This document shows, piece after piece, positions 3,490 through 62,263 of a stretch of DNA of 62,263 bases. Positions within the stretch are counted from its first letter, which is position 1. Each line of letters begins with the position of its first letter. Origin of the DNA: Candidatus Enterousia sp. (GTDB lineage: Bacteria; Pseudomonadota; Alphaproteobacteria; Rs-D84). The stretch is taken from positions 1 through 62,263 of the forward strand of contig JAZRPS010000011.1 in the NCBI GenBank assembly GCA_045649345.1, given 5' to 3'. The translations under genes were made by a program, and so were the position numbers. The notes beneath the pieces are model-generated. The model was not told the origin of the DNA, ran no database searches, and saw only the letters and a program-made list of their open reading frames with translations.

Positions 3490-3502
3490 GTATTCGATGC
3501 TA

Positions 3503-6621: not shown

Positions 6622-6643
6622 AATTAAATATAATAATTTATCT

Positions 6644-6726: not shown

Positions 6727-6765
6727 AATAAAGAAAAGTCCCGGGGAATTGGGGCTTTGATTGTT

Positions 6766-12389: not shown

Positions 12390-12446
12390 TCTCTCTGTCC
12401 TTGTTTTTTTATTATAATGGATTATATTAAGGTTGCGAATAAAAAA

Positions 12447-14438
12447 ATGAAAAAAGCAGAATTTTATCTTGAAAGTGATTATAAGCCCATGGGTGACCAG
12501 CCAACCGCAATTGCAGAGTTGGTTGATGGGGTCAGTTCTGGTAAACAATCCCAGGTTTTGTTGGGGGTGACCGGGTCAGGCAAGACATTTACAATGGCAA
12601 ATGTGATTGCAGAATTAGGACGCCCGGCGCTGATTATGGCGCCAAATAAAATTCTGGCGGCACAATTATATACGGAAATGAAGTCGTTCTTTCCGCGTAA
12701 TCATGTTGAATATTTTGTGTCGTACTATGATTATTATCAGCCAGAGGCATATATGCCAACAACGGACACTTATATCGATAAAGATGCGTCGATTAATGAA
12801 CAACTGGACCGGATGCGGCACAGTGCAACGCGCGCAATGCTGGAAGAGCGTGATGTTGTTGTGGTGTCGTCTGTTTCGTCAATCTATGGTATGGGATCGC
12901 CTGAACAATATGCCGGGATGAAATTGGTATTAAATGCCGGTGATATGATTTCGATGCGTGATGTGATGCGGGCGCTGGTTGATATTCAATATAAACGAAA
13001 TGATACGGCGTTTGAACGCGGTGATTTCCGCGTGCGTGGTGATGTGCTGGATATATTTCCGTCCCATTCACAAGATAGGGGATGGAAACTGTCTTTTTGG
13101 GGGGACGAGATAGAAGAAATCTGGGAATTTGATATTTTAACAGGTGCAAAATTAAAAAAGATAGACAGGATTGCAATCTATCCAAATACACACTATGCAA
13201 CCCCAATGCCCAGTGTTTTACAGGCATTGACGCAAATTCGCGCGGATTTAAAAGAGCGTTTGGAATACTTTCATGAAAATATGAAATATATCGAAGAACA
13301 GCGTTTGCGTGAACGTGTGAACTTTGATATCGAAATGATGGAAAGTACGGGGACATGTCGTGGGGTGGAAAATTATTCGCGATATTTATCGGGACGATTA
13401 CCGGGGCAGCCACCACCAACACTGTTTGAATACTTGCCAAAAGATGCGGTCTTGTTTATTGATGAAAGTCATGTGACGGTTCCACAAATTGGTGCGATGA
13501 GTCGCGGTGATCGTGCGCGCAAGGAAACATTGTCCCAATATGGATTCAGATTGCCGGCATGTGTTGATAATCGACCATTAACGTTTGAAGAGTGGGATAG
13601 TCTGCGTCCGCAAACGATATTTGTTTCTGCAACGCCTGCGGAGTGGGAATTGGCGCAATCAGGTGGCGTTGTTTCAGAACAGGTTATTCGACCGACGGGA
13701 TTGTTAGACCCGGTGTGCGAGGTTCGCCCAATCGAACATCAGGTTGATGATTTGTTGGGTCAAGTAAAAAATACCCAGGGACGTGTGTTGGTGACAACGC
13801 TGACCAAGAAAATGGCGGAACAGTTGACGGACTATTTGAATGAAAATAACGTCAGGGCAAAGTATCTGCACAGTGATATTGAAACGCTGGAACGTATTGA
13901 ATTACTGCGTGAATTGCGTATGGGAAAGTTTGATGTTTTGGTAGGTATCAATTTATTGCGCGAAGGGTTGGATGTGCCAGAATGCGAACTGGTCGCGATT
14001 ATGGATGCGGATAAGGAAGGATTCTTGCGTTCAACGCGGTCGCTGATTCAGACAATTGGACGTGCGGCACGTAATGCAAGCGGACGTGTGATTTTGTATG
14101 CAGATAAAATCACAGATTCAATGCGGGCGGCGCTGGACGAAACGGCGCGTCGACGTGAAAAACAAATGGCGTACAATGCAGAACATGGAATTACACCAAA
14201 AACTGTCACCAAGGCAATCTTTGCTGAGGTTGGTGAAAAACAAGAAAAGACTGACAAAGCCCGCAGATTTGTGTATGATAAATCGGGTGGTGTGATGGAT
14301 GCTGATTCAATCCGCAAGGAAATAAAGCGTCTGATAAAGATTATGCACACGCATGCAGAAAATCTGGAATTTGAAGATGCCGCTGCGGTGCGTGACACAA
14401 TTCATAAACTGGAAGATGATTTGCTGTTGGTGGAGTAG
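12447..14438 (+). CDS. uvrB: Excinuclease ABC subunit B
   Basis: [10 protein letters not shown], Walker [10 protein letters not shown], helicase motifs, C-terminal UVR domain ([17 protein letters not shown]). Start 12447 chosen for N-terminal length; 12417 is possible. Confidence 0.95.
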
Positions 14439-14975: not shown

Positions 14976-15006
14976 AAAAATACACCCCATATGGGGTGTG
15001 TTTTTA
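14976..15006. terminator. Bidirectional terminator hairpin between convergent tsaE and ftsA-rpe
   Basis: ACACCCCATATGGGGTGT palindrome flanked by an A-run and a T-run. Confidence 0.65.
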
Positions 15007-16788
15007 TGTGTTTTGAATATCTTTTTTTAGCAGGCTGTGTACTGCCAATGGAAAGTCTGGGGACTTTGCAAGGTATGAACCGCTGACCAACATGTCGGCA
15101 CCTGCGTCCCAGCATAATTTTGCAGTTCTGTCATTTATGCCACCGTCAACAGATATGACGAATTTTAATCCATATTTTTTGCGTGTTGCCACCAGAACAG
15201 ATATTTTATGCAGGGCGTCAGGTTCAAAACTTTGACCGGCAGCACCCGGTTCGACAGACATTATCATAACCTCATCAATATCGCGCAGGACAGGTTTTAA
15301 TATAGATACAGATGAGCCTGGGTTTATGGCGATTCCGACGCGACGACCAGCGTTCTTTACGATTTTTATTGCAGCACGCAAACCAGATGTATTGGTTGAC
15401 AGTATGACCGTGTCTGCGCCGGCAGCGACAGCGTCAGTTGCCCAAATGTTCGGACTTTCGGTCATTAAATGTACATGTAGATGTGCGTTTGTGTGTGTGC
15501 GGATTGTTTTTAATTCTTCGATACTGCCGGCGATTCTGTCGACATAAAAACCGTCCATAATATCGACGTGTATCATTGATATGCCACCAGATTTAAATAG
15601 GCTATATGTTTCTGGGCGTCGCATGTCAAAGCACAATGTGCTGGGTAATATTGGAATAAATCGGGTGTGATGTTTTGGTTTGCGCTTAAATAATTTATGA
15701 ACCCAGTTGGTGCGCTTTTGCCAACGGTTGTGGCGCGCAATAAATGATTCGCGTTTTGGTTGCAGACCGTGCCATATATAGTCAGACAGGGCGCGAACGG
15801 TTGCGTCGGTGGGTATTGCGTCGGTCAATACGGCAAATGCGTTTTCGATAAAGTCACGTAATCCTTCGATTTCAGCGCCACCGCCTGTTAAAATTATTTT
15901 TGTTGGGTGATATTTTGTAAATGGTTTCAGGCATTGGTCTTTGATTTGTCCAATAATATCAACCAAGATTGGTATAATAATATCGTTTACGTCGGCACGT
16001 GAAAAATCATAGGCGGTATCTGCCGGTGTAAAACGATCCATTTCTTTGGGAATCAGGGATGCGACCGCACGCTTTATTTGGTCGGCAGATTCAACAGATA
16101 TATTTAATTTTTCAGAAATTGCGTTCGTTATATCTGTGCCACCCAGTTTTATTTTTGTGTGAAAAACAGGACCGCGATCTGTCCAAATTGATGCGCTGGT
16201 AAACCCTGCGCCAAAATCGATAAATAGTGTTGGTTGCTTTTCTGTGCGATAAATTGCGTTTTGTATAAATTGTGGGTCATAAAAGGCGGTCGGTTGAATA
16301 AATGCGCCACGCATATGTTCATAAATTTTATCAATCCCACTGCGTGAATAAAATATTGCACCAAAAACAGATGCCAGTTGATGGTCAATGTGTCCAATTG
16401 GTGACAACATATTGCGCGCATGTGGCGTATCATATCGTAATGGAACAATGTGCATTGGGAAATAACCATCGGGTGGTGTTATGCGTGAAATTTGCGCACG
16501 TATGTCAGATGTGGTAATTTTATGTTCGCCAGACCATGTATCGTGTTGGATGGACATTTCAAATGCAGATGGACCAAAATTCCCGGTTATAAAGGCGTTA
16601 TCAAAGTGTGAACCAATTTGTTTTTCTAGTTCGTCAACAACAGATTTTATTGCAAATACGGTATCAAAGCTGTCCATGCTAAAAAAAGCAGAATGGTCAA
16701 TTTGGGCGTTGCGTATGCGATGCGCAATGCCACGTACACCATACGTGCCAATGTCAAGACACAAAAAAGATGAATCGTATAAGTTCAT
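15004..16788 (-). CDS. ftsA: FtsA cell-division protein fused in frame to a ribulose-phosphate 3-epimerase domain
   Basis: Residues 1-350 align by eye with FtsA (LDIGTYGV, IDFGAGFTSASIW, LGGTDIT, LTGGGAEIEGL). Residues 354-372 form a basic amphipathic stretch. Residues 377-594 carry Rpe motifs (IHVDIMDG, HVHLM, MSVEPGAAGQSF, VDGGI). Confidence 0.8.
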   Translation of the reverse strand: MNLYDSSFLCLDIGTYGVRGIAHRIRNAQIDHSAFFSMDSFDTVFAIKSVVDELEKQIGSHFDNAFITGNFGPSAFEMSIQHDTWSGEHKITTSDIRAQISRITPPDGYFPMHIVPLRYDTPHARNMLSPIGHIDHQLASVFGAIFYSRSGIDKIYEHMRGAFIQPTAFYDPQFIQNAIYRTEKQPTLFIDFGAGFTSASIWTDRGPVFHTKIKLGGTDITNAISEKLNISVESADQIKRAVASLIPKEMDRFTPADTAYDFSRADVNDIIIPILVDIIGQIKDQCLKPFTKYHPTKIILTGGGAEIEGLRDFIENAFAVLTDAIPTDATVRALSDYIWHGLQPKRESFIARHNRWQKRTNWVHKLFKRKPKHHTRFIPILPSTLCFDMRRPETYSLFKSGGISMIHVDIMDGFYVDRIAGSIEELKTIRTHTNAHLHVHLMTESPNIWATDAVAAGADTVILSTNTSGLRAAIKIVKNAGRRVGIAINPGSSVSILKPVLRDIDEVMIMSVEPGAAGQSFEPDALHKISVLVATRKKYGLKFVISVDGGINDRTAKLCWDAGADMLVSGSYLAKSPDFPLAVHSLLKKDIQNT

Positions 16789-21722: not shown

Positions 21723-22265
21723 ATGAAAATGAAAAAGTCAGAGGGAAAATTTGTAAAAGTTTTATGTTATGTAGCAACGTTTGTTGTCGGGGCAGGTATT
21801 GGTTTCTTTGCGTCGGAAATAACGGCAAAAAAAGGTATGCAATTATCTGATGCACAGTGTGCGGTCGTTCAAGAAAAAATTATCGAAAATGCAAAGTGTT
21901 ATAGTGCGTTTTGTACAGAACACTTAAAGGAACTGTATGCGATTTACCGTAATGATTGTGCAGGTCGTATTATTCCAGAAGAAATATATGAAATGCGGTC
22001 TTGTGCACAGATGGAAAAAATTATAAAAAAGCGTTTCGATGCGTCCAAGGAAACAAGTTCGTCTTATCGTGATCATATCAGCCTGGCCAGCTATTTTGTA
22101 AAATTGGCGGTGCATGCATGTCCGGAACATGTTGAAATGTACAATAATCTGGCGTGGCGTGAAATTGAAATTGTGGGGGCGTTGACATCTGTGGAATATA
22201 TGGATATGGCAGATAAACAAGAATTAAACCGTGTGTTGAAAACACTGGGTGAAAATAAGAAATAA
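21723..22265 (+). CDS. Membrane-anchored hypothetical protein with a Cys-containing helical module (180 aa)
   Basis: N-terminal TM anchor. One copy of the ~60-aa module C-x2-ME-x2-I...ACPEH-x3-Y-x3-A-x-REIEIVGAL, shared with the next gene. Confidence 0.55.
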   Translation: MKMKKSEGKFVKVLCYVATFVVGAGIGFFASEITAKKGMQLSDAQCAVVQEKIIENAKCYSAFCTEHLKELYAIYRNDCAGRIIPEEIYEMRSCAQMEKIIKKRFDASKETSSSYRDHISLASYFVKLAVHACPEHVEMYNNLAWREIEIVGALTSVEYMDMADKQELNRVLKTLGENKK

Positions 22266-22289: not shown

Positions 22290-23060
22290 ATGAAAAAAGC
22301 AGAAAAGCAATATAGGGTTGTGCATAGTCGTTCACAAAAAATCTGGGGGGCGTTGGCACTGGCGGGATTATTTGCATGTGGATTGTTGGTTGGTTGGGGT
22401 ATCAATGAAAAACGCAGTGCGCCACAACAACTGGAAATGGAACAGATTGCAAAGCCTGTCCCCCAGGTTGATGGTGATGTGAAACCGGTCACAGAACAAA
22501 ATTCTGAACCAAAAGAAACGTGCCAGATTATTGAAGACCTGTTATTGGAACGTCTGGCGCCAGTTGATAGTCAAGACGTTGAAGCGCATGAATTTAATAT
22601 TAATGTTTATGAAAAGTTGGTAATGAATGGCTGTTCAGAAAATCAAATGAAATATCACAAGGCGGCACAACGAGAACGTGAAATTGTAAACGCGTTGCAA
22701 CAGACAAACAGTTCACAACAAACATGTGAACAGATTGAAACATTGTTGACGCAACAATTGCCGTATGCAAATGAAGATTCGGAAGCGCGTATAGAACGTG
22801 CAAAAATCTATGCAAATTTATCTGAACGTGGTTGTCCAGAAAATAGTGCGAAATATGTTGAATTGGCAAAACAAGAACTGGAAATCGCACGTGCGTTAGA
22901 AGATGATGAATTTGATAATGATGAAACAATCGAAGTTGTTGAAACATACAAGCGTTTGAATATGCAGGCGGCAGCCGAAGAAATTTTTGAAACGGCGAAA
23001 AAACTGACTAACCCGGCGATTGATTTTATCTTGGAAGTTGAAAAAATAATTAATGAATAA
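22290..23060 (+). CDS. Membrane-anchored hypothetical protein with two copies of the same module (256 aa)
   Basis: TM anchor (IWGALALAGLFACGLLVGWGI). Modules TCQIIEDLL...GCSENQMKYHKAAQREREIVNAL and TCEQIETLL...GCPENSAKYVELAKQELEIARAL. Confidence 0.55.
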   Translation: MKKAEKQYRVVHSRSQKIWGALALAGLFACGLLVGWGINEKRSAPQQLEMEQIAKPVPQVDGDVKPVTEQNSEPKETCQIIEDLLLERLAPVDSQDVEAHEFNINVYEKLVMNGCSENQMKYHKAAQREREIVNALQQTNSSQQTCEQIETLLTQQLPYANEDSEARIERAKIYANLSERGCPENSAKYVELAKQELEIARALEDDEFDNDETIEVVETYKRLNMQAAAEEIFETAKKLTNPAIDFILEVEKIINE

Positions 23061-23077: not shown

Positions 23078-23677
23078 ATGAAATTCTGGGTGATTTTATT
23101 CGGATTGGTTTTAACAACAGGTGCATTTGCCACAGATGACACAACCGAAGATGTTGTCGAAGAAGAGGTTGTTGAAGAAGAGGCAGAAGCGTCTGTTGTA
23201 GAGCGCATATCGTGTACAGATATTCAGGCGCAGATAACAGAATTGAGTGCCATAGAAGAACCGGATGAAGAAACGCAAGAAGAATTGGCAAATCTGAAAG
23301 CAACCCAACGTTCGAAATGTATGCGCAGTGCAGGAAAGCGACGTGCCGCCGTGGGACGCAAAGCGCTGATTGCAGCATCAGAAGCGTCGACGACCACAGA
23401 AGAAGTTTTGGTTGATGAGAGTGTAGAGAAAGAACAGCCAAAACAAGAGGCTGAGAAAGAAGAAGTCGTTAAGGAGGTTGTTGTTGAAGAACAAACCGTG
23501 TCCGAATTAACCCCGGAACAGGTTCAGGCAAATTTGGACGCAGGACTGTGTGCAGATGGTGCAAAACCGAATCGTTTTGGTTGTTGCGGCGATGAAATTT
23601 TTAAAGATATGGGGAATGCTGTTTTTGCATGTTGTCCAAAATCTGGGGGTGATTGTTTGCCACCAATAGGAAAATAG
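23078..23677 (+). CDS. Secreted acidic protein with a C-terminal cysteine-knot-like domain (199 aa)
   Basis: Signal peptide MKFWVILFGLVLTTGAFA, Glu/Val-rich low-complexity body, C-terminal CADGAKPNRFGCCGDEIFKDMGNAVFACCPKSGGDCLPP. Confidence 0.6.
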   Translation: MKFWVILFGLVLTTGAFATDDTTEDVVEEEVVEEEAEASVVERISCTDIQAQITELSAIEEPDEETQEELANLKATQRSKCMRSAGKRRAAVGRKALIAASEASTTTEEVLVDESVEKEQPKQEAEKEEVVKEVVVEEQTVSELTPEQVQANLDAGLCADGAKPNRFGCCGDEIFKDMGNAVFACCPKSGGDCLPPIGK

Positions 23678-23933: not shown

Positions 23934-24034
23934 AATCTAATGGTATATCTAAAGCGGGTTAGCAATGGCTCATGTACGTTTGTGTACACTACGCCATTTT
24001 TAACCCGTTTATCTATACCATTATCTTTTATTTT
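23927..24034. repeat. Palindromic ~108-bp MITE/REP-like element, copy B1
   Basis: Arms of ~43 bp (AAAATAAAATCTAATGGTATATCTAAAGCGGGTTAGCAATGGC and its imperfect reverse complement) around the loop TCATGTACGTTTGTGTACACTAC. Near-identical to 55163-55272. The stop codon of the upstream gene lies in the left arm. Confidence 0.85.
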
Positions 24035-24057
24035 TAAAAAATTATAATAATTCATCT

Positions 24058-24139
24058 AAAAACAAATCGGGCATCTCATGTAGCGTTTGTACACTACGAC
24101 GCCCGATTTGTTTTTATCTAAATCATTCTATTTAATTTT
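24058..24139. repeat. Palindromic repeat element, copy B2 (hairpin plus conserved tail)
   Basis: AAAAACAAATCGGGC / GCCCGATTTGTTTTT arms around ATCTCATGTAGCGTTTGTACACTACGAC. Tail ATCTAAATCATTCTATTTAATTTT is identical to copy A. Confidence 0.8.
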
Positions 24140-24181
24140 TCCCATGGCAAGGGGTGTGGGCAGGGCAGATTAATTATTCGC

Positions 24182-24229: not shown

Positions 24230-24304
24230 GCGGGCATAGTACAAAGGCTAGTATGCAAGCCTTCCAAGCTTGAAATGAGGGTTCGATTCCCTCTGCCCGC
24301 ACCA
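24230..24304 (+). tRNA. tRNA-Gly (anticodon UCC), CCA encoded
   Basis: Acceptor GCGGGCA/TGCCCGC, anticodon stem CAAGC/GCTTG with loop CTTCCAA, T-arm GAGGGTTCGATTCCCTC. Confidence 0.9.
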
Positions 24305-24329
24305 AAAAATTGTGAAAAAAGGAATCTGC

Positions 24330-24383
24330 TTGATTTTGATTCCGGTCGTGTACGCTTTGTACACTCGCCTTTATCAAAATCGT
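24330..24383. repeat. Palindromic repeat element, copy B3 (short form, between two tRNAs)
   Basis: GATTTTGAT / ATCAAAATC arms around GTCGTGTACGCTTTGTACACTCG, which shares the conserved GTGTAC...GTACAC core. Confidence 0.6.
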
Positions 24384-24418
24384 CGCATATTCTCGTTTTT
24401 GACAATTTTTACAAGATC

Positions 24419-40528: not shown

Positions 40529-41629
40529 ATGCGAATTTTTGAAAAAAACTTTGTTATGCGTGGTTTTTTAATGCTGGTTGGGGCGTTCGTGTTGACGTCA
40601 TGCGACCTGTCCAGCCCCAGTGTGGTTGGTGATAATTCTGTGATTCCATCGAATTTTAAGCGCGTATCATATGCACAATTGCCAGGCTGGCGCGATGATG
40701 ATGTGCGATATGCATTACAGGCATTTCGTAATTCGTGCAAGGCAAAAATTCAATATACGGGGCGTTTAATCCCAGACAGGGCGTTGTTCGAAGAAAAATG
40801 TAATCGTTTGCCATCGGCGTCTGCAGATGTGGCGACGGTTCGTGCGTGGTTCGAATCTAATTTCCAGCCATATCAGATTTATAATGATGTTGGTGGTGAT
40901 AGTGGTACGTATACTGGGTATTATTCCCCAATCATTCCGGCGTGTCGTACCAAGACCGCACAGTGTAATGAACCATTGATGGCGGTGCCACGCGATGGAC
41001 GTAATTACAAAGGGGTTCCAAAAAAAGATATTGTTGAAAAGCAGATTGGTCGCGTGTTGTACTGGGCAAATATTGTCGATGTGCAAAACTTGCAAATTCA
41101 GGGGTCTGGAAATTTAAGACTGGAAGATGGGACAGATGTAAAACTGAATTTTGGTGCGGTTAATGATATGCCGTTCAAATCAATTGGTGAAGAATTGCGT
41201 AAACGCGGAATTCGTCCTGCCGGTGGCTATTCGTCAGAGGCAGTATGGCAACACTTAAAAGCAAATCCGACGTTGGCAAAAGATGTGATTTATAAAAATC
41301 CACGTTATGTTTATTTCTATGAATCGACACCACCGGATGTAATTGGAAAATTGGGTACGCCGTTGTCAAAAATACGCAGTATTGCGATGGACGATGACCT
41401 GTATACGTTGGGATTGCCTGTGTACGTCAGTACGAATTTGTCAGACGGTCGTCCGTTTCGACGCCTGATGATTGCCCAAGATACAGGCAGTGCAATTCGT
41501 GGCTGGATTCGTGCCGATATTTTCTTTGGCAGGGGGGACGAGGCATACAAGTTTGCCCAGGGACAACATGCACAGGGTCAGATGTTCATCTTGATGCCCA
41601 AAGAATATAGTTATGTCAAACCACGATAA
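40529..41629 (+). CDS. mltA: Membrane-bound lytic murein transglycosylase A
   Basis: Lipobox (FVLTSCD), MltA domain (YYSPIIPA...), C-terminal 3D domain (AQDTGSAIRGWIRADIFFG). Confidence 0.8.
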   Translation: MRIFEKNFVMRGFLMLVGAFVLTSCDLSSPSVVGDNSVIPSNFKRVSYAQLPGWRDDDVRYALQAFRNSCKAKIQYTGRLIPDRALFEEKCNRLPSASADVATVRAWFESNFQPYQIYNDVGGDSGTYTGYYSPIIPACRTKTAQCNEPLMAVPRDGRNYKGVPKKDIVEKQIGRVLYWANIVDVQNLQIQGSGNLRLEDGTDVKLNFGAVNDMPFKSIGEELRKRGIRPAGGYSSEAVWQHLKANPTLAKDVIYKNPRYVYFYESTPPDVIGKLGTPLSKIRSIAMDDDLYTLGLPVYVSTNLSDGRPFRRLMIAQDTGSAIRGWIRADIFFGRGDEAYKFAQGQHAQGQMFILMPKEYSYVKPR

Positions 41630-52907: not shown

Positions 52908-55166
52908 ATGGCAAAAGAATCTAAATTTTTACCCCAGCGCGTATCTGATGCGTTAAAGAGTTTGCTGGCCCGTGTATTCGGGGTGGTTGTTTGTGTTTTT
53001 GGAATTTGGGCAACGTTTGCGTTGTTGTTTTATAATCCGTACTTAGACGGTTTTGGTGTCGCCAGTTCTTTTGGTGACCAATCGTTGATGGGGTATATCG
53101 TGGGCGTGGTACGATATGCGGTTGGTGTAATTCCTGGGTTGTTTGTGTTTTTGTGTGTTGCGCGTTGGGGGGCGGCAACCGTTATTGGGTTGGATAGTGG
53201 TGATGCCCCAGAATATAATTTCTTGCGTGGGTTTATTGCAGTATGCATGGGGGCGGCCGGTTTTGGATTGTTGGTGCCGTCTGCGTCATTTGGTGGTATG
53301 TTTGGCGCGATTGTGGCCAGTGATGTTAGTGCGCTGATTGGTTCATGGGCGGTGATTCCTGGGATTTTCTGTGTGTTGGGATTTTTGGTAATGGGGGGTA
53401 TGCTGTTGCATGTAAAATGGGCGCATGTTCGTGGTGCGTTGCGTATGTTCGTGCGTTGGTTGCGTTGGGTTGCGTCTGCGTTCCATTTAACACATGGGCA
53501 ATATGTTGAACATACAGATGATGCATCAGAAGACGAAACAGATGAAGAATATGACGAAGAAGAAGCCGAAGAAGAGGTGGAAGAAGAAAAGCCAAAGCGT
53601 GGTTTGTTGCGTAAAAAAGTTGCAAAGCCTGTCAAGGCAGCTGCACCTGTGGCGGCGGCAAAGATACGTAATGCAGGTGCGTATGAATTGCCAGACCCAA
53701 AATTCTTGGAACGTTCCAGTTTCAGTAAGTGTTCTGTCACGAATGATTTAAAACAAAACGCCAAGAATATGGAGGTGCATTTCGCACAATATGGTGTCTA
53801 TGGCAAGGTGGTTGGTATTAAGCCGGGACCGGTGGTGACACTGTATGAATTTATGCCAGACGATGGTACGCGTATGACGGACGTTAACAAGACTGTGACA
53901 GATATGGTGCGTGCAATGGCCACAGAAAATATCCGTATTGCACATATTCCGCGTACACAGTTGATTGGTGTTGAAATGGTAAATCTGAACCGTCAGACGG
54001 TGCGTTATCGTGGGCTGGTTGAAAATCCGTTGTTTACAGAATCAAAGTACAAGATTCCATTGGCGCTGGGTGTGGATATTGGTGGAAATCCAATGTATTT
54101 TGATTTGGCAAAAATGCCACATATGCTGATTGCAGGGCGTACCGGCTCGGGTAAGTCTGTGTTTGTTCAATCATTGATTACATCAATTGTTTATCACTTT
54201 ACACCTGATAAGTGCAAGTTGATGATTATCGACCCAAAGGGTGTTGATTTCGGGTTCTGGGATGATATTCCACACTTGATTACGCCGATTGTAAAGTTAG
54301 ACCCAGGGGCGGCGGTGAATGCGCTGAAATGGGCAGTACGGGAAATGGAAGAACGTTATAAACAACTGCAATTATTAAATGCACGAAATATCGAAAGCTA
54401 TAATGAAATGGCGGCGGAAAAACGCGCGTCTGGTGAAAAACTGACTAAACAGGTCGCCGTTGGTACAGACGATGAAACTGGTGAATTGCTATTCGAAACC
54501 CAAGAAGTCGATTTGTCTGATATGTCATATATCGTAATTATTATTGACGAGGTGGCAGACCTGATGAGTTTGGCGCGTAAAGAGGTAGAAGCCTGTGTTC
54601 AACGTATCGCGCAAAAGGCGCGTGCTGCCGGTATTCACCTGATTATGGCGACGCAAAGACCCGACGCGACAACAATTACCGGTGTTATCAAGGCGAATTT
54701 CCCAACACGTGTTTCGTTCCAGGCGCGCAGTCGTATCGACAGTACAACATGTCTGGGCGAAGGTGGCGCAGAAAATCTGTTGGCAATGGGTGATATGCTG
54801 TTTAGCGAGGCAGGTCGCATCCCTGTTCGTATACATGGCGCCTTTATTGATGACAGTGAATTAACACGTATTGGTAATTTCTTGCGCGCCCAGGGCGAAC
54901 CAGAATATGCATCTGGCGTCACAGATGGCGAAGAGAATACGGATGCTGCACCGGTACCGTCTGCATCAGAAGTTAGGGCAGAAAAAAATGCCGATATGTA
55001 TGAACAGGCCAAAGAAATCGTCATTCGTGATAAAAAGCCGACAATTTCATATATTCAGCGCAGACTGGGCATCGGTTATAACAAGGCGGCCGGGTTTATA
55101 GAACGCATGGAACAAGAAGGTGTTGTGTCTGCGCCTGACGCGAACAACAAACGCCACATTCTCTAA
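52908..55166 (+). CDS. ftsK: DNA translocase FtsK
   Basis: N-terminal 4-TM domain, acidic/Ala-rich linker, motor with Walker A GRTGSGKS and IIIDEVADL, C-terminal gamma winged helix (ISYIQRRLGIGYNKAAGFIERMEQEGVV). Confidence 0.95.
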   Translation: MAKESKFLPQRVSDALKSLLARVFGVVVCVFGIWATFALLFYNPYLDGFGVASSFGDQSLMGYIVGVVRYAVGVIPGLFVFLCVARWGAATVIGLDSGDAPEYNFLRGFIAVCMGAAGFGLLVPSASFGGMFGAIVASDVSALIGSWAVIPGIFCVLGFLVMGGMLLHVKWAHVRGALRMFVRWLRWVASAFHLTHGQYVEHTDDASEDETDEEYDEEEAEEEVEEEKPKRGLLRKKVAKPVKAAAPVAAAKIRNAGAYELPDPKFLERSSFSKCSVTNDLKQNAKNMEVHFAQYGVYGKVVGIKPGPVVTLYEFMPDDGTRMTDVNKTVTDMVRAMATENIRIAHIPRTQLIGVEMVNLNRQTVRYRGLVENPLFTESKYKIPLALGVDIGGNPMYFDLAKMPHMLIAGRTGSGKSVFVQSLITSIVYHFTPDKCKLMIIDPKGVDFGFWDDIPHLITPIVKLDPGAAVNALKWAVREMEERYKQLQLLNARNIESYNEMAAEKRASGEKLTKQVAVGTDDETGELLFETQEVDLSDMSYIVIIIDEVADLMSLARKEVEACVQRIAQKARAAGIHLIMATQRPDATTITGVIKANFPTRVSFQARSRIDSTTCLGEGGAENLLAMGDMLFSEAGRIPVRIHGAFIDDSELTRIGNFLRAQGEPEYASGVTDGEENTDAAPVPSASEVRAEKNADMYEQAKEIVIRDKKPTISYIQRRLGIGYNKAAGFIERMEQEGVVSAPDANNKRHIL

Positions 55167-55272
55167 AATAAAATCTAATGGCATATCTAAAGTGGGTTGG
55201 CAATGGCTCATGTACGTTTGTGTACACTACGCCATTTCCACCCCGTTTATCTATACCATTATCTTTTATTTT
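55163..55272. repeat. Palindromic ~108-bp MITE/REP-like element, copy C
   Basis: Aligns base for base with 23926-24034 apart from about 8 substitutions by eye. Same loop TCATGTACGTTTGTGTACACTAC. The ftsK stop codon lies at its left edge. Confidence 0.85.
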
Positions 55273-55284
55273 ATCCCACTGCAA

Positions 55285-55294
55285 GGGGGGGGGG
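55285..55294 (+). repeat. Homopolymeric G10 tract upstream of the first cysteine-rich protein gene
   Basis: Ten consecutive G in an otherwise AT-rich intergenic region, 66 nt before ATG 55361. Confidence 0.9.
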
Positions 55295-55360: not shown

Positions 55361-57784
55361 ATGAAGCGCTTTATTCATGTTTTTTTATTAATGTTTTGTG
55401 TAATGCCAGGGTTGGCATTGGCACAGGTTGCAACCACCGTAGGCAGTAATTTGACCGCCTGGAATGGTAATATGGGGGCAACAAATAATAATGAATGGAA
55501 TCAAATGATGAATCCGCGTGGTGGCGGGGGGGCTGGTGCAAATGTGCCTGCGGCGGATTTTGGTAATTGTAATGCATTGATATTGCGCTGTGCGCAACCA
55601 AAATGTTCGGGGTGTACAACAATGGATGTGGCGCGCCCGATTGTTGCAGGTTGTGTGAACAGTAATGCGACATGTAAAAAACATGGTGATGCATTGATTG
55701 ATTATATAACGGCACAAATGGTGTCAACCGCAAATTCCAGGGCGCAAGAGGCGCAAATACAGGCCCAGGCGGCAGCTGCCCAGGCAGCGGCAGCGGAAAG
55801 CAATGCACAAATGCAACAAATGCAAATGCAGATGCAACAGATGCAGGCGCAAATGGCGGAACAAAATCAACAGCAAATGCAACAAATGCAGGCGGCGCTG
55901 GAACAACAAAAAGCAATGACAGAGGCAGCACTGGCAGAAGCCGCCGCCGCAAAGCAAGATAATGCCACTTCATCAAGTGTGTCTGCTGGTGGGGCTGATA
56001 CCGCGGTTTCTGGTGATGGGTCTGTGCGTGGTGGACTAACCGCGGCGCAACAACAGGCCGCCGCCGCCGGGGTTGAGGCAGATATTTTAGTGCGTGAACA
56101 GATTTCTGGTCAAATTTTAACCAAGATAGAAGCGGCAGAAATCGCGTTAAAAAAACTGAATACGCAAATGCAAGAGACGTTTAGATATGCCGGTTGTGAT
56201 GTGTTTGGTAATAACTGTGCCGGACCAAAGCGTGTAAAAAAATTCAAGGAAATGGCATTGGATTATTTCCGACCATATGATGAAGTGGTTGAAAATGCGT
56301 ATGAAGCATTGGAAATGGCATTGGCGGTTGGTGTTGATGTGTCTGACGTTATTATGATGTTAAGTGGTGCATGCAATCGTTGGGGTAAGTTTTTGTGTAA
56401 TATGCCAAAGACCAAAGATAATAAGAGTGTACCGTATCCCAGATATAATTCTGAGAATTGTCGTGGTGAAAAGTCTGTAAAGGGTGCGTTGGCGAGTGCG
56501 AAATCTGGGCATGAAACATTTGAAACAACATTGCGTGGTGGGTTTGAATGTTCGCCTGGTATGGTGGTGCCACCCCAGGACGATGTTCAGTGTACATTGG
56601 TTTCGTTCGTTGGTGGCGAAGGCGAAGGTGATGAAGTCTTGCGTGAATGGTTGCTGGAAGGGGAAGAGGGTGATGGTATGACCCGTGTTGGTTGTGCGAC
56701 ATCTGCGTTGGATACATTGCCGATGTTTGGACGTCGCAGCAGTCGTCGTGATTCCAATTCAACATTGGATTTGGATACACTGGAACGTATCTTGGTTCAG
56801 GACGCGCCAGAGGTGGTTGGTCAAAACAGGTTTATGCGTTCGAATTCAGAATCCGCAGAAGTATCACGTTTAAAATACTGTGCAATGACCCCACGTGGTT
56901 ATGAAACATTGCGTGGCGTGTTAAGCAGCAAGAAATTACCGAAACAGATTTGTGTGCCGTATGATACGTTGGCACGTAATTATCAAACCCAGGGTTCATT
57001 GTCATCTGATTACACTGGCACCAGTGGGCTGATGGCCAGTGGTGTTATGCCGGCGGATGTGAATAAGTATACTTGTGATACTTATTTTACAAGTGGGAAA
57101 AGTGGGGTGCCACCGGCGTGTAATGGTCGATGGGTTGGTTCTGAAACAGAGGGGTCATGTCAATATAACGCAACAAATTGTGTGCTTGAATACGATTCTT
57201 TTAGTAAAATAAAAGCGTTGCGTGAATTGTCGTTGGACGAAAAAAAGCAACGGGGTTGTCAGTCAAGCGAAAGTGGTGGCACATGGAATGCGTCTGCAAA
57301 AAAATGTGATTGTCCATCGGGTAAAACAGTACGTGAAAATACTTCGTACCAGTGTGTCAGTGCAGAAGCTATTACGGACGCTGATTGTAAAAATTTTGCC
57401 AAAGAAATGGGGGCTGATGATAATAATGCCAGGGTTAATGGTGATGGTACATGTGTTGCGAAAAATTACAATTTGATTAATTACAGTTATTGTGATGTGC
57501 GTAAATGCAATGGTGACGGCGTCACAAAACGCAAAATATCTGAAGGTGGTTCTTATAATTATAATGTCTGCTGTTGGTGTAGCAAAGGTGGTGGTTATGC
57601 ATTTAATCCAGACAGCGGTTCATGTAAGGATTCCGGGGGGGGTAGTGTGTCTTCGGCTATGTTTACGAATGCTATTGGATCAAATCCTTTTAATTTGCCA
57701 TTATTAAATAATGGTACAGGTTCGAATGCTGGGGGGCTGAGCAATTTAAAATTGGGCGTTGATTTTATGGGGAAAACATATTAA
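55361..57784 (+). CDS. Large secreted cysteine-rich protein, unknown family (807 aa)
   Basis: Signal peptide MKRFIHVFLLMFCVMPGLALA, FGNCNALILRCAQPKC module, Gln/Ala/Met-rich helical stretch, many Cys through to the C-terminus. GAGAGAAA RBS. Confidence 0.7.
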   Translation: MKRFIHVFLLMFCVMPGLALAQVATTVGSNLTAWNGNMGATNNNEWNQMMNPRGGGGAGANVPAADFGNCNALILRCAQPKCSGCTTMDVARPIVAGCVNSNATCKKHGDALIDYITAQMVSTANSRAQEAQIQAQAAAAQAAAAESNAQMQQMQMQMQQMQAQMAEQNQQQMQQMQAALEQQKAMTEAALAEAAAAKQDNATSSSVSAGGADTAVSGDGSVRGGLTAAQQQAAAAGVEADILVREQISGQILTKIEAAEIALKKLNTQMQETFRYAGCDVFGNNCAGPKRVKKFKEMALDYFRPYDEVVENAYEALEMALAVGVDVSDVIMMLSGACNRWGKFLCNMPKTKDNKSVPYPRYNSENCRGEKSVKGALASAKSGHETFETTLRGGFECSPGMVVPPQDDVQCTLVSFVGGEGEGDEVLREWLLEGEEGDGMTRVGCATSALDTLPMFGRRSSRRDSNSTLDLDTLERILVQDAPEVVGQNRFMRSNSESAEVSRLKYCAMTPRGYETLRGVLSSKKLPKQICVPYDTLARNYQTQGSLSSDYTGTSGLMASGVMPADVNKYTCDTYFTSGKSGVPPACNGRWVGSETEGSCQYNATNCVLEYDSFSKIKALRELSLDEKKQRGCQSSESGGTWNASAKKCDCPSGKTVRENTSYQCVSAEAITDADCKNFAKEMGADDNNARVNGDGTCVAKNYNLINYSYCDVRKCNGDGVTKRKISEGGSYNYNVCCWCSKGGGYAFNPDSGSCKDSGGGSVSSAMFTNAIGSNPFNLPLLNNGTGSNAGGLSNLKLGVDFMGKTY

Positions 57785-57788
57785 AAGA

Positions 57789-58562
57789 ATGAAAAATTTG
57801 AAAAATATTTTTATTGGATTTTTTGTGGTGTGTGCTGTGACACTGGCGCCGGTGTTTGCCGCAGATAATGGTTGTGATGACCCGGACAATGATGCAATTG
57901 TGGCGGAATTGGCACTGTGTTCAACGCATGCGTATAATATTGGCGCAACAAAAAATCCAACCGGCGCGGATCGGGAACTAATGCGCGAAGTTGTCGCAAT
58001 GAAAACAACTCTGATTACACAACAAATGTACAAGCAATATCAACAGATGGAATCGATGTTGCGTCGATTGAAAACGCAGTTGCAAAAGGCGGTATTGAAT
58101 ACTAAATTACAGGTCGCCGGTGCAGACAGCAGTTCGGGCGGTTCCGGTAGTTCTGGTGGACGGTTTGAATCAGACGACCGTAATTTGCATATTGCCGGTG
58201 CAAGCAACTGTATGAATCTGTATGAAGATGAGAAGATATTGGAGTGTTTCCAAACAAATTTAACAACGATTATTAATTCGTCTGGTCAGGGCAGTAATCC
58301 AACCCCAGAAATTAAAAAGCAATTGGCGTATGATTTTAAAAATTTATCTGTAATGACGTTTGATGGTGTAAAAAGTTCTTGTGATGACTTGTCAGGTAAG
58401 GAAGCAACCAGTGATAAAACAAAGAAAATAGGGGTTTTGTGTTCGGATCCAAAAATGAAAAACAAAGCCTTTAAAGATGATTGTTTGGGTGCAATGCGTT
58501 CGTGTCTGCAAAATCAAACGCGTGCATATAGAAATAATCAGGCAAAGTTAAGCAAAGATTAA
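57789..58562 (+). CDS. Secreted cysteine-containing protein, unknown family (257 aa)
   Basis: Signal peptide MKNLKNIFIGFFVVCAVTLAPVFA, helical Gln-rich segment, Ser/Gly linker, 10 Cys. 4-bp gap from the preceding gene. Confidence 0.6.
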   Translation: MKNLKNIFIGFFVVCAVTLAPVFAADNGCDDPDNDAIVAELALCSTHAYNIGATKNPTGADRELMREVVAMKTTLITQQMYKQYQQMESMLRRLKTQLQKAVLNTKLQVAGADSSSGGSGSSGGRFESDDRNLHIAGASNCMNLYEDEKILECFQTNLTTIINSSGQGSNPTPEIKKQLAYDFKNLSVMTFDGVKSSCDDLSGKEATSDKTKKIGVLCSDPKMKNKAFKDDCLGAMRSCLQNQTRAYRNNQAKLSKD

Positions 58563-58670
58563 AAAATCCCCCAACTGGTATTCACTGTTGTATATCTTTG
58601 TCACCCCTGCGCAGGGGTGGCAAAACTTTTCAAGTTTTGTTCTGGTTATGGCGCTTTATCCCCCGGGAAC

Positions 58671-59219
58671 TTAAAAACTGTATCGAAATCCAGTGCCAAT
58701 AAAGTTAAAACCGTGATTTGTTTCTGTGAAATCGCCGTTTGAAAAGTGCAGGGTGAATATTTCTGCATTAATTCGGTTGTTAAATCGATAACCAATAAAT
58801 ACGCGTTCGCCAAAGACCAGACGACTGGTGACATAGTCGTCGCCACTGTCGCGCATGTATGGCCCCAGACCTGCGCCCAGGTAAAAATCGCACCATGATA
58901 AAAATGCAATGTCCCATGATATACCAATCGCGCCAAATGAACGACCGTCGGCACTGTGATAGGCAAAGTTTTGCAGTGCGTGTATGTTTATGCGCCCCGG
59001 CAGGCGCAATAGATTAATCGGCTGGCTGTATTCCAGCATTATTGTGGTCATTGGTTCAATTCGCCAATCGGCCGGCATTACCAAGTGCCCCAGGTCGCCG
59101 TGACCGGTGCTTTGCGCGATATGTATACCAATGGAATTTTGTTTGTCGTCGCCAAACATCGGGTTGGCAAATGTGTAAAATGGAAAAAGCGTCATGAAAA
59201 TGTATGTAAATTTTTTCAT
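58671..59219 (-). CDS. pagL: Lipid A 3-O-deacylase (PagL)-like outer-membrane protein
   Basis: Signal peptide, beta-barrel-like alternating pattern, C-terminal HFSNG...NHGFN...GFRYSF resembling the PagL His-x-Ser active site and a terminal aromatic residue. Start at Met 59219. Confidence 0.65.
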   Translation of the reverse strand: MKKFTYIFMTLFPFYTFANPMFGDDKQNSIGIHIAQSTGHGDLGHLVMPADWRIEPMTTIMLEYSQPINLLRLPGRINIHALQNFAYHSADGRSFGAIGISWDIAFLSWCDFYLGAGLGPYMRDSGDDYVTSRLVFGERVFIGYRFNNRINAEIFTLHFSNGDFTETNHGFNFIGTGFRYSF

Positions 59220-59420
59220 AATAAGAATTATATATTTTTGTGTGACTGTTTTGCAATTTGACAAAAAGCCTATGAAAAACAATTGTGCCGTATAAATAAA
59301 CGTGTTTACATGACGCAAAAAAATTGATATAATTAAGTAAATAGAAGGTGTATTTTGCATGGGGCAAATATGCCGAAAGGTTGGGTTTCTGGGCGTTTCC
59401 CAGAACACAGGGAGAGTTTT

Positions 59421-62237
59421 ATGAGAAGTCAAAAAATCGCAAATTCTATCAAGAATGCAATGGGGACGGTTTTCCTGTTGGCGGGGGCGTTTTTTGTTTG
59501 TTCAACTTTATTGTCAATGCGTGCGGTCTTGGCGGATCCAATCGCGCCGGTGTATGACACGGTTATGGCACCCCAGGCAACGGTTGCCGGTGCAACATCA
59601 CGTGCAACAAATGGGCGTGCAACAACATCGCGTGCCAATCCGCGTGGTAATGGCGCAACATCGCGTGCAACGGTTGCGCGGACTGCAACAAATGTAAGTA
59701 ATTCACGTGCAACAACGACGCGTAATGTATCGAATGCCCGTGCAACAACAAATAGTCGTGCGGTTGCGTCGCGATCAGCGGCAACGCGGAATGTTTCAAA
59801 TGCCCGTGCAACGACAAATGCACGTGCGGTTGCGTCACGAAATGTTGCAACGCGTGGTGTCACAACGCGCGCAGGTGCGACAAATACACGTTCTGTGCGT
59901 GCGCGTACGGCAACAACAGATGCGGCATCAAATGCGCGCGTGTCTTTACAGGGCAGTGCAATCCGTGGCAGTAAATCAACCCCAACAACATCGTATTCAT
60001 ATTTGTCTAGCAAATTGTATACCGGTAATTATTCAAATATTATTGATTCAACCACAGGTCTGATTTCGAACGAGGCATTTACAAACTGTATGGAATCATA
60101 TTATACATGTATGGACGAAATTTGTACGGCGCGTAATTCTGCCCAGCGTCGCTGTGCGTGCGCCGGTCGTGTCAAAGCATTTGCAGAGGCGGAAACAGCC
60201 CTGGAATCTGCAAATGAAGAATTGATAAAGGTGTCTGGTGAATTGGCGCTGTTGATTGCAAACAAGGGTAAAGATGTGTCAGAAGCCTTTCAGTTAACAG
60301 AGGCAGAACAAGTTATGAACTGTGTTTCGTGGCAGGATGTCACAAATCAATATGGTGCAAATTCGGAAGAGGCGATTGAATGGTGCTATGCCCACGGGAT
60401 TTATGGTTCAAATGGTGCAAGCCTAAGCACATGTTCAAAGCCGTCTTATTGTACGTCATCTGGTAATAGTTTTGGGTTCGATGTTTCAAACCTGGACGGT
60501 AGTGGTTCTGATATTATGGCGTCTTTGCAATCATGGGCAGATGCCAAGGAAAAAACACTGACAATCATGACAGATGATACAGATTCTTTGACCAGTGCGT
60601 TTGATAATTTGTCATCTGTGGTCAGTGGGATGGCTGGGATTGATGGTGCGTTAACAAATGCCGAAGATTTAAAGGATTCCTTGGCAGAAACGTGGGGCTA
60701 TGAATTATTTGAATATGCGCACAACAATGTTTGTGGTCGTGTGTTGGATTCTTGTTTTAATGGAATATATGAGGCATGTGGTACGCCGCCATCTGGTGGA
60801 CGCAAATGTTCAAATGGTGCATCACAATGTCCATATAATTATAACAGTACAATTACGGTGAATAATACAGGTACGTATGAATTGAACTTTGTGACCGCCA
60901 GCAGTGGTTATACATCGTCAAATTCTGCAACGTGTTTTGGGTATGCGTCAACGTCTGGAGACCCGTATTCAAACCTGCGTGGACCGGTTGCAGATGCACG
61001 TCGCAGCATTATGCAAAAGTATGCGTTGGACGCAAATGCAGACTGTGATGCGTATGGTGAACAGTTGCGTACAACCGCGCAAAATATCGGTTATCAAAAG
61101 GTTGCCGCACAACAGGCATTGCAACAGAAACGTCTGGAATTTGCCCAGGAAGAAGAAGAAACAACATTGACCGCCGCGATAGAGGCAGGTACAAACTTTA
61201 ACGAATGTCTAAGCGAGATTTATGATTGTTATGAAACGCAGTCTTCGTCAAATCCAAACTGGCCAGATGCGCGTATCAAGACATATTGCGCCCAGATTGC
61301 AAATGTTCCACATTGTTATGAAGAAATGATTTGTAATCCATCAACCGCACAATTCAAGGCAGTTATCGATGATGCAGACAGTGAACAGTGTAATAATACC
61401 CAAGATTACACAACAAATACATGTCGTAATATCGTGACATTAAATGAAATCTTGAATGGGACGGGTGTAAAGCCGGATGCTGGATTTAACTCTCGTACCA
61501 GTACGGTTTCTGCGGCGATACGTGAACAGTGCTTGTTAGATGCAGGTGTTGATGATATCCGCAGATGGTCAACGGATACGGCGGCGTCTGTTCGTTGTTC
61601 GGTTTCAGAAACGCGTGATGTGGATGCAAATGCGGCGATTGCGTATCGTGATGCCAAGGGTGGTTCATGTTATATCACAGAGTGTAATCCGGGTTATACA
61701 CTGGAAAATAACAAGTGTGTATCAAATGCGATTGATTGTAAGTCTGAAATTAAGCATGCGGTCAAGGCCACACGTACGGTATCTGATGGTAAAATGAATA
61801 CATGTTATGTATCAGAATGTGAAGAAAATTGGGCGCCAAGTTCAAATAAGACCGCATGTGTTGGTGTGACGCGTGCGTGTTCGTCGGCAGAATTAAATGC
61901 AGTTGGTGCCGGGGCAGGTATAGTACAATGGACAGATGATCCAACGGTATGTGGCGATAAAGCCGGATGTTGGGGGGCGTGTAAAGCTTCTTCTTGTGCA
62001 TCTGGTCTATATTTAAATAGTTCTGGTGACTGTGTTGGTGTTAGTGAACTGACCAGAGAAGATTGTGAAGCAAACAACCTTGTCTATTATGGTGGCGTCT
62101 GTCAAACCCCTGTCGCTTGTCCTGCTGGAACATATTGGGCTTTTGAAAATGTGCAATGCGAATCAGCCGACAATTTAAGCGAACTCTCTTGCAAGGCACA
62201 TAATTTGAATTGGTCTAATAATTATTGTACTGAATAA
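59421..62237 (+). CDS. Large secreted cysteine-rich protein with a basic N-terminal repeat region and C-terminal EGF-like Cys repeats (938 aa)
   Basis: AGGGAGAG RBS ahead of ATG 59421. Signal/anchor GTVFLLAGAFFVCSTLLSMRAVLA, (S/A)RAT(T/N) repeats, FTNCMESYYTCMDEIC module, more than 50 Cys. Confidence 0.7.
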   Translation: MRSQKIANSIKNAMGTVFLLAGAFFVCSTLLSMRAVLADPIAPVYDTVMAPQATVAGATSRATNGRATTSRANPRGNGATSRATVARTATNVSNSRATTTRNVSNARATTNSRAVASRSAATRNVSNARATTNARAVASRNVATRGVTTRAGATNTRSVRARTATTDAASNARVSLQGSAIRGSKSTPTTSYSYLSSKLYTGNYSNIIDSTTGLISNEAFTNCMESYYTCMDEICTARNSAQRRCACAGRVKAFAEAETALESANEELIKVSGELALLIANKGKDVSEAFQLTEAEQVMNCVSWQDVTNQYGANSEEAIEWCYAHGIYGSNGASLSTCSKPSYCTSSGNSFGFDVSNLDGSGSDIMASLQSWADAKEKTLTIMTDDTDSLTSAFDNLSSVVSGMAGIDGALTNAEDLKDSLAETWGYELFEYAHNNVCGRVLDSCFNGIYEACGTPPSGGRKCSNGASQCPYNYNSTITVNNTGTYELNFVTASSGYTSSNSATCFGYASTSGDPYSNLRGPVADARRSIMQKYALDANADCDAYGEQLRTTAQNIGYQKVAAQQALQQKRLEFAQEEEETTLTAAIEAGTNFNECLSEIYDCYETQSSSNPNWPDARIKTYCAQIANVPHCYEEMICNPSTAQFKAVIDDADSEQCNNTQDYTTNTCRNIVTLNEILNGTGVKPDAGFNSRTSTVSAAIREQCLLDAGVDDIRRWSTDTAASVRCSVSETRDVDANAAIAYRDAKGGSCYITECNPGYTLENNKCVSNAIDCKSEIKHAVKATRTVSDGKMNTCYVSECEENWAPSSNKTACVGVTRACSSAELNAVGAGAGIVQWTDDPTVCGDKAGCWGACKASSCASGLYLNSSGDCVGVSELTREDCEANNLVYYGGVCQTPVACPAGTYWAFENVQCESADNLSELSCKAHNLNWSNNYCTE
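59590..59940 (+). repeat. Degenerate tandem repeats (CGTGCAACAAC-type units) encoding an Arg/Ala/Thr/Asn/Ser-rich region
   Basis: Repeated peptide units SRATNG, RATTSR, SRATVAR, SRATTTRNVSNARATTNSRAVASR, TRNVSNARATTNARAVASR visible in frame. Confidence 0.8.
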
Positions 62238-62239
62238 AA

Positions 62240-62263
62240 ATTCCCACCGCACGGTGGGAATTT
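62240..62263 (+). terminator. Terminator-like hairpin after the last cysteine-rich gene (truncated by the window end)
   Basis: TTCCCACCG CAC GGTGGGAA stem-loop preceded by an A-run. Confidence 0.55.

Follow-up and report, generated by a model that had tools for sequence, protein, structure and literature searches.

The 62,263-nucleotide stretch of DNA considered here (contig JAZRPS010000011.1 of a Candidatus Enterousia species, hereafter the window) carries near its end three co-directional genes, designated A (55361-57784, + strand), B (57789-58562, +) and C (59421-62237, +), which encode cysteine-rich proteins of 807, 257 and 938 amino acids (aa). The three proteins represent families that are new at the level of both sequence and fold, as judged against the PDB and the viral library BFVD. 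They appear to be exported and extensively disulfide-bonded, and they belong to two conserved gene modules rather than to one system. With a confidence somewhat short of even, they are understood here as rigid, disulfide-stapled structural components of the envelope or surface. The position and orientation of the genes, and every peptide quoted in an earlier reading that was made from the letters of the DNA alone (the sequence-only reading), were recovered in the translations.

The unusual cysteine content of the three proteins, on which that reading had been built, is borne out by comparison with the remainder of the window. Among the 33 open reading frames (ORFs) of at least 250 aa, A (4.1% Cys), B (3.5%) and C (4.8%) rank as the three most cysteine-rich, the median being 1.06%. 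Inspection and hydropathy analysis of their N-termini revealed a basic n-region and a hydrophobic 19-aa window with Kyte-Doolittle values of 2.0-2.5, and the predicted cleavage sites (ALA/Q in A, VFA/A in B and VLA/D in C, the slash marking the cleaved bond) have small residues at positions -3 and -1. The proteins are thus predicted to carry signal peptides of the Sec/signal peptidase I type; the cleavage region of B (...VFA/ADNGC) is not a lipobox. Conservation of the cysteines in homologues, named beforehand as one of the points on which the sequence-only reading could fall, proved to be nearly complete. In C, 23 of the 24 core cysteine columns are conserved in 40 of 40 homologues and the remaining one in 34 of 40, the cysteine columns between positions 70 and 531 of A are conserved in 39-40 of 40, and the first four cysteine columns of mature B in 38 of 38. 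Moreover, the number of cysteines in the mature proteins is even in 120 of 120 homologues of C, 115 of 116 of B and 112 of 115 of A (347 of 351 altogether), and in 47 of 54 distant paralogues. A bias towards even numbers is reportedly a genomic signature of exported proteins in which all cysteines are paired. The even counts indicate complete disulfide pairing and argue for 16 disulfides in A, 4 in B and 22 in C. The claim of exported, disulfide-rich proteins is therefore upheld by Sec-type N-termini, invariant cysteines and a nearly perfect even-cysteine rule. Elsewhere in the window, the gene at 5564-6061 (+) encodes a polytopic membrane protein of 165 aa in which a CPVC motif stands just after the first hydrophobic segment and further cysteines lie in later hydrophobic segments; the protein matches no Pfam or NCBIfam family and is a candidate membrane thiol-disulfide oxidoreductase.

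No known family could be recognized in A, B or C, as had been surmised. Searches of Pfam and NCBIfam with the three proteins returned only low-complexity noise, with no match to adhesin or S-layer families, and the entire set of PDB sequences, searched with phmmer and with profiles, yielded no match. TraN (PF06986) was not matched by A, B or C in an hmmscan search of Pfam at E ≤ 1. Like them, TraN is a large bacterial protein that is exported and has many conserved cysteines, but A, B and C are encoded in the chromosomal core among housekeeping neighbors, with no tra genes nearby and no relatives on plasmids. Foldseek comparisons of the A and C models with the PDB, and of the C model with BFVD, yielded no match at E ≤ 1e-3. 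The top non-significant matches were long helical proteins of a generic kind, namely the MukB coiled coil, colicin Ia, ClyA, AhlC, clusterin and the trypanosome HpHbR, all with E > 0.05 and template modelling (TM) scores of 0.05-0.3; AhlC (probability 0.96) had an E of 1.2 and TM-scores of 0.09/0.27, and ClyA an E of 4.1. HpHbR, ClyA/AhlC, colicin Ia and clusterin, elongated proteins of the surface or secreted, share with the AlphaFold predictions long helical bundles, and disulfide-stapled helices are common to clusterin and C, but with E > 0.05 and TM-scores below 0.3 homology cannot be claimed. The sole structural hint towards Cys-rich repeats was the Cys-rich region of the insulin receptor (E 3.9).

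Homologues of A, B and C number in the hundreds each, every one of them annotated as hypothetical, and uncultured Alphaproteobacteria, represented by metagenome-assembled genomes (MAGs), are their only source. Relatives of C were found in 256 GTDB species representatives in a scan of one genome per species; the genomes are recorded as Candidatus Enterousia, as uncultured Rickettsiales or as gut, rumen or faecal MAGs, and include one closed chromosome of 958,618 bp. Enterousia has been placed in the order Rs-D84, with genomes of less than 1 Mb that lack the tricarboxylic acid cycle, a respiratory chain, pathways to make amino acids, nucleotides or fatty acids, and the standard nutrient transporters; a partner-dependent lifestyle was proposed, and unexplained "hypothetical membrane-bound proteins" were mentioned (PMC12306168). 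The A, B and C proteins are not described in the publications found on Enterousia, Rs-D84 and Hepatincola, and an exact look-up of the A protein among public assemblies returned no record.

The C protein, whose ORF is open from 59355, begins with a signal peptide (59421-59534, +; aa 1-38, ...AVLA/DPIAP) that together with the first mature residues (…FLLAGAFFVCSTLLSxRxVxA/DPIAP; 59421-59550) is far more conserved than the subsequent linker, and this motif may be a sorting signal. A similar post-cleavage motif (A/EVAPVYY, A/DPI...) was seen in distant C paralogues, which carry ordinary signal peptides. The linker (59535-60005, +; aa 39-195) is a basic low-complexity segment with an isoelectric point (pI) of 12, 14% Arg, an abundance of A, T, S and N, and no cysteine; it is encoded in part by a 66-bp tandem repeat (59718-59854), and residues 28-195 are disordered in the AlphaFold model. 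A conserved segment (aa 196-216) precedes the N-module (60069-60170, +; aa 217-250), which contains five cysteines in the arrangement C223-x6-C230-M-D-x2-C235-x9-C245-x-C247. The N-module is followed by a conserved acidic core (60171-61586, +; aa 251-722) with a pI of 4.3, and the 24 core cysteines, located between positions 223 and 704, are those of the N-module and the core. In the model the core consists mainly of disulfide-stapled helices, one of them 90 residues long (520-610), together with Cys-rich loop and beta regions. Core sequences are about 65-75% identical across the genus; in individual genome pairs the identity is 64-70%, compared with 73-74% for FtsK in these pairs. The AlphaFold models of A and C were built from alignments of 120 and 143 sequences; that of C has a mean predicted local distance difference test (pLDDT) value of 72 and is mostly above 80 between residues 205 and 938.

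The C-terminal extension of C (61587-62237, +, including the stop codon; aa 723-938) is optional. It comprises about 4.5 repeats of approximately 47 aa with four cysteines each (C...C-x4-C-x2-[GN][YW]-x5-9-C) and a short helix, and it is modelled as small beta-rich units at a pLDDT of 78-95. Most homologues lack the extension, 69 of 120 having the 24 core cysteines only, and across the family the mature protein contains 24 to 56 cysteines, the linker and the C-terminal repeats being variable in length. The repeats had been likened to eukaryotic EGF, furin or VSP units. The likeness consists in short beta-hairpins with regularly placed cysteines, present in the C units (ACPAGTYWAFENVQC, CYITECNPGYTLENNKC) and in the CDCPSGKT... 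unit of A, but membership in these families was not sustained: EGF, furin-like, VSP and Ephrin_rec_like profiles had no match in either protein at E ≤ 1, and the highest-ranking profile was CPL1-like (E 0.55). In contrast to the CxxC-type unit of the Giardia VSPs, the repeat of C is a unit of about 47 aa with four cysteines and a short helix. An actual Ephrin_rec_like match (Pfam, E 2.9e-6) was obtained only for repeats of the distant paralogue P0476, not for A or C.

A profile search with the C family across 1.84 billion representatives gave only 228 matches. The distant ones, proteins of 680-1373 aa of which many exist, come from Rickettsiales or Alphaproteobacteria MAGs, whose style of locus tags hints at termite guts as a possible source, and can be aligned with C only across the linker and the N-module, where they display the signature [YF]xxC[KR]xx[YF]xxCMDx[FI]C-x9-CxC followed by a helix. 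A 'CMD' superfamily is defined here by a signal peptide, a low-complexity linker of R, A, T and S, the motif [YF]xxCxxx[YF]xxCMDx[FI]C-x9-CxC and a helix, and C, with the cysteine spacing of its N-module, conforms to this definition. Because the distant members share the N-module signature, C is placed in this wider superfamily, which on present sequences is an expanded one restricted to Rs-D84 and its relatives. One further member, paralogue D, is encoded 1-2 kb downstream of the C homologue in 27 of 82 related loci (for example at 9292-11463 of L042); the window stops 26 bp past C, and D was searchable only in the related loci. D is a protein of about 720 aa with a signal peptide, a linker rich in T, S and R, the N-module KSCQEQYNDCMDQFC...RCSCS and C-terminal CVCNTGY repeats, and a tblastn search with D matches C at an E of 5e-9. 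In a divergent relative (L086, 1-2209, -), an 816-aa member of the superfamily with 24% identity to C (E 1e-10) was observed a few kb upstream of A-B, a further case of proximity between both kinds of genes.

Gene A, whose ORF is open from 55178, starts at an ATG preceded by the ribosome-binding site AGAGAGAA. Its product consists of a signal peptide (aa 1-21), a conserved segment rich in Asn, Gly and Trp that is predicted to be disordered (22-66), a six-Cys helical module (67-105), long helices rich in Q, M and A (about 105-201), a conserved helical region (228-335), a beta-rich Cys domain (336-445) and a Cys-rich C-terminal domain that varies between species (561-757). Mature A contains 32 cysteines. 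Residues 316-334 form the one conserved hydrophobic 19-aa window (Kyte-Doolittle 1.69), which includes Asp and Glu. The AlphaFold model of A has a mean pLDDT of 65 and contains several confident helical and beta domains. Gene B starts 4 nt past the stop codon of A, and its product has a signal peptide (1-24), an invariant NGC-x14-C motif, a conserved helix (about 60-105), a Ser/Gly linker and a six-Cys C-terminal region, with 8 cysteines in the mature protein. In genome pairs in which FtsK is 73-74% identical, the identity of A is 48-59% and that of B 44-55%. B follows A directly in all eight related loci that carry A, with a gap of 4 nt or an overlap, from which it is concluded that A and B form an operon; the usual site is downstream of ftsK, and the same order was found from locus tags in four annotated MAGs. 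A and B probably act together. A GC-rich hairpin after B (CACCCCTGCGCAGGGGTG; 58603-58620, +), identified by sequence, is the probable end of the A-B transcript, although its weak T-run kept it from being called in a simple terminator scan.

The sequence-only reading had proposed an N-proximal module common to A and C. This proposal was not supported by BLASTP, which found no match among A, B and C, or by three profile-profile comparisons. Alignment of the A, B and C family profiles with hhalign gave probabilities of 0.4-5% and never paired the proposed modules; the A and C families were aligned at 3%, elsewhere in the proteins, and a profile of diverse CMD N-modules (effective number of sequences, Neff, 4.4) scored 0.06% against A and 0.24% against B. 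The C-x6-C-x4-C-x2-C of A is not accompanied by the M-D and C-x9-C-x-C elements of the C module. A module shared by A and C, or by B, was consequently rejected, since A and C have only the C-x6-C-x4-C spacing in common, a spacing frequent by chance, with 14 further occurrences in the six-frame translation of the window. A, B and C appear to be three unrelated, lineage-restricted families with no detectable kinship.

Nor does the gene order in relatives agree with the earlier view of one three-gene system. B is adjacent to A in eight of eight loci, pagL lies immediately upstream of C in about 51 of 77 related loci (44 of them in divergent orientation), and just 4 of 82 related genomes have A-B at a distance of less than 6 kb from C. 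These four genomes exhibit three arrangements, ftsK-A-B-pagL-C, ftsK-A-B-C and pagL-C-A-B. Because synteny rarely joins both, the locus is better regarded as two modules, the A-B operon and the pagL-C pair; a single three-gene system was rejected on these grounds. The occasional proximity of A-B and C is at most weak evidence of a functional link.

According to the reading of A, B and C as structural components of the envelope or surface, the proteins would undergo oxidative folding once beyond the cytoplasm, all their cysteines pairing into disulfides, to give bodies that the models suggest to be rigid, elongated and mostly alpha-helical. In C, the signal peptide would be followed by an Arg-rich disordered tether and a disulfide-stapled helical stalk, with a variable tip of four-Cys beta-repeats added in some species. 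The basic tether would hold the acidic stalk on anionic envelope polymers, either lipopolysaccharide or peptidoglycan, and the variable Cys-rich ends would point outward, where they could provide mechanical robustness, contact with partner cells, or both. For A, B and C alike, we infer the location beyond the periplasm, the mechanism of tethering and the contact function. A more far-reaching version, which we consider rather unlikely, would make A-B and the C/D 'CMD-module' superfamily a contact apparatus of an obligately partner-dependent bacterium, in which rigid, Arg-tethered and fully disulfide-bonded stalks present variable Cys-repeat tips to a bacterium, a protist or the host epithelium; the stalks would be matured by an unrecognised oxidative pathway in an anaerobe that lacks the respiratory chain needed for reoxidation of a DsbB-type enzyme.

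Several observations weigh against an assignment to the envelope or surface. No gene for DsbA, DsbB, VKOR or a thioredoxin-fold protein was found in the 62-kb window, and because the lineage is also reported to lack a respiratory chain (PMC12306168), no oxidant for the 4-22 disulfides per protein is apparent; the cysteines could instead bind metals. No route across the outer membrane is recognizable in A, B or C, be it an autotransporter barrel (Pfam), a lipobox or a C-terminus of the type 1 secretion system kind, and for this reason the proteins may be retained in the periplasm rather than exposed at the surface. The conservation of the C core, which approaches that of FtsK, is unusual for an exposed adhesin. 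Finally, the genes around A, B and C have envelope functions (pagL, lptD, lptFG, lolCDE, secDF, ctpA, a PAP2 phosphatase and ftsK), which speaks for such a role, but in a genome of about 900 genes this synteny could be incidental.

The main rival takes up part of these observations and places the proteins in the periplasm or along the inner surface of the outer membrane, where they would form a disulfide-cross-linked lattice that stiffens the envelope through intra- and intermolecular disulfides, in analogy but not homology to chlamydial OmcA and OmcB. OmcB and OmcA contain about 4-5% Cys or more, are encoded side by side and are thought to rigidify the envelope via disulfides; beta-sandwich repeats make up OmcB, and OmcA is a lipoprotein. 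The likeness lies in a host-dependent Gram-negative organism with a reduced genome that exports large and small Cys-rich proteins through Sec, encoded side by side. Export signals without a signal for translocation across the outer membrane, the large and small Cys-rich pair in the A-B operon, a C core conserved almost like FtsK, neighbors with a role in envelope biogenesis and even cysteine counts are all consistent with a lattice. On the other hand, A, B and C are largely helical, lack a lipobox and match no chlamydial OMP or DUF11 profile in Pfam or NCBIfam. Strictly even cysteine numbers favor pairing within the molecule over cross-links between molecules, and the variable tandem Cys-repeat tips and expanded paralogues are more typical of exposed proteins. 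In addition, peptidoglycan genes are retained, so a substitute for peptidoglycan is not obviously needed: the window encodes a D-Ala-D-Ala carboxypeptidase (2317-3543) and MltA (40529-41629), and a related locus (L001) a penicillin-binding protein. A lattice of this kind is considered doubtful.

A role of A, B and C as periplasmic metal- or cofactor-binding proteins, with the cysteines as ligands of Zn, Fe-S or Cu, is improbable. It would suit an anaerobe that reportedly has no respiratory chain (PMC12306168) and a window in which no Dsb genes were seen, so that oxidative folding is not assured, but even cysteine numbers in 347 of 351 homologues point to disulfide-bonded exported proteins, CxxCH, ferredoxin-like and His-rich motifs are absent, and the cysteines are spread across 500-700 residues within the helices and beta-hairpins of confident AlphaFold domains. 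Least probable of all are effectors or toxins released by secretion, such as alpha-helical pore formers, that act on partner cells to release metabolites: the elongated helical proteins among the best, non-significant Foldseek matches (AhlC, colicin Ia and ClyA), the conserved hydrophobic window of A at 316-334 and an organism without standard nutrient transporters and biosynthesis (PMC12306168) speak for them, but no Foldseek match reached E ≤ 1e-3 (TM 0.05-0.3), Asp and Glu occur within the hydrophobic window, the genes belong to the chromosomal core without plasmid or phage relatives, and no secretion system is linked to them.

The elements said to bracket the locus (a palindrome and a G10 tract upstream, a hairpin downstream) and the enclosed pagL-like gene are all present. 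The pagL-like gene (58671-59219, -), divergent from C, encodes a 182-aa protein predicted to form an eight-stranded outer-membrane barrel and matches Pfam PF09411 at an E of 9.4e-12 (45.7 bits, cut-off 23). A weak alignment (E 0.3) with PagL of Pseudomonas aeruginosa (2ERV) retains the H-x-S-N motif (LHFSNG versus IHYSNA), with Asn opposite the terminal Glu; the catalytic His-Ser-Glu triad of the P. aeruginosa enzyme is said to be H126, S128 and E140. A divergent promoter-like site for pagL (59256-59227, -) rests on a consensus match only, as does one for C (59305-59333, +; TTTACA-17-TATAAT with an upstream TG, 11 of 12 matches). Behind the stop codon of C, a terminator-like hairpin, CCCACCGCACGGTGGG, followed by T residues lies at about 62244-62260 (+), and the window ends within its tail. 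It is proposed that C is transcribed alone and divergently from pagL.

The palindromic element of about 110 bp between ftsK and A (55164-55273, without strand) contains the inverted repeats I1 and I2 and is one copy of a genomic repeat family; other copies are located at about 6620-6730 and 24030-24140, and a partial one at about 24300-24400. A pattern search for the palindrome returned 3 matches versus 0.1 expected. The copies have conserved flanks (AAATAAAATATAATAATTCATCT and TATCTAAATCATTCTATTTAATTTT) and a conserved loop (CTCATGTAnnnTTTGTACACTAC), and the sequence of the inner stem varies between copies while complementarity is kept. The element also occupies the ftsK-A junction across species (L003, L004, L005, L046 and L088), with two copies in L004 and L088. 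It could be an element resembling repetitive extragenic palindromes or miniature inverted-repeat transposable elements (REP/MITE-like), a bidirectional terminator or a structured RNA. The G10 homopolymer (55285-55294, +), identified by sequence, lies about 67 nt 5' of the ATG of A and about 43 nt 5' of a conserved TGTTAAAAT box that resembles an extended -10 element. Its counterparts in relatives are G6 in L088, where the protein is 96% identical, GAGGG in L004 and G8 in L003, and the tract may be hypermutable. Phase variation through it was considered and is not established; the tract lies in neither the -35/-10 spacer nor the coding sequence.

Outside this locus, too, the 62-kb window consists of ordinary core chromosome, not mobile DNA, and belongs to a Candidatus Enterousia-like alphaproteobacterium of the order Rs-D84. 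It encodes SmpB, AspRS, UvrB, FtsA/FtsQ, LolCDE-like proteins, RecA, glycosyltransferases, MltA, XerC/D, LptF/G, MutL, SecD/SecF, CtpA, a PAP2 phosphatase, FtsK and tRNAs. Searches of plasmids and phages for relatives of A, B and C found none, and in this housekeeping context an origin from a mobile element was rejected. Other unusual genes were noted in the window. An 877-aa ORF without a Pfam match (9915-12548, -) lies amid housekeeping genes and is another large lineage-specific protein. In a single 594-aa ORF (15004-16788, -), an FtsA-like N-terminal part (PF14450) is joined to a C-terminal ribulose-phosphate 3-epimerase domain (PF00834); the ORF represents either fused genes or two neighboring genes read together. 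Three consecutive orphan genes (21723-22265, 22290-23060 and 23078-23677, +) without a Pfam or NCBIfam match encode products whose hydrophobic N-terminal segments, present in each, suggest that they are exported or anchored in the membrane; the second contains four internal repeats with a Cys pair in each (C..IE.LL... / GC.EN..KY), and the third is highly acidic with a C-terminal Cys cluster (CADG...FGCCGDE...ACCPKSGGDC).

Members of Rs-D84 and Enterousia are widespread in the guts of humans, livestock and termites. Their genomes of less than 1 Mb lack most biosynthesis and transporters, which raises the question of how they acquire nutrients and on which cells they depend. A, C and their paralogues, of 700-1400 aa each, come from genomes with about 900 genes; strong purifying selection acts on them, and no characterised protein resembles them. 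This combination of size, selection and novelty makes them prime candidates for an envelope or contact machinery, and concrete targets for antibodies, for imaging coupled to fluorescence in situ hybridization and for pull-downs directed at the partner. The even-cysteine rule in turn poses the question of how a dozen or more disulfides per protein are formed in an anaerobe without a respiratory chain. Expectations are tempered by the fact that the function is entirely inferred, that the locus consists of two independently conserved modules and that uncultured lineages commonly encode exported orphan proteins. What raises the proteins above the routine is their size and conservation, the even-cysteine rule and the clear signature of the superfamily, which together offer a testable lead into the lifestyle of Rs-D84.

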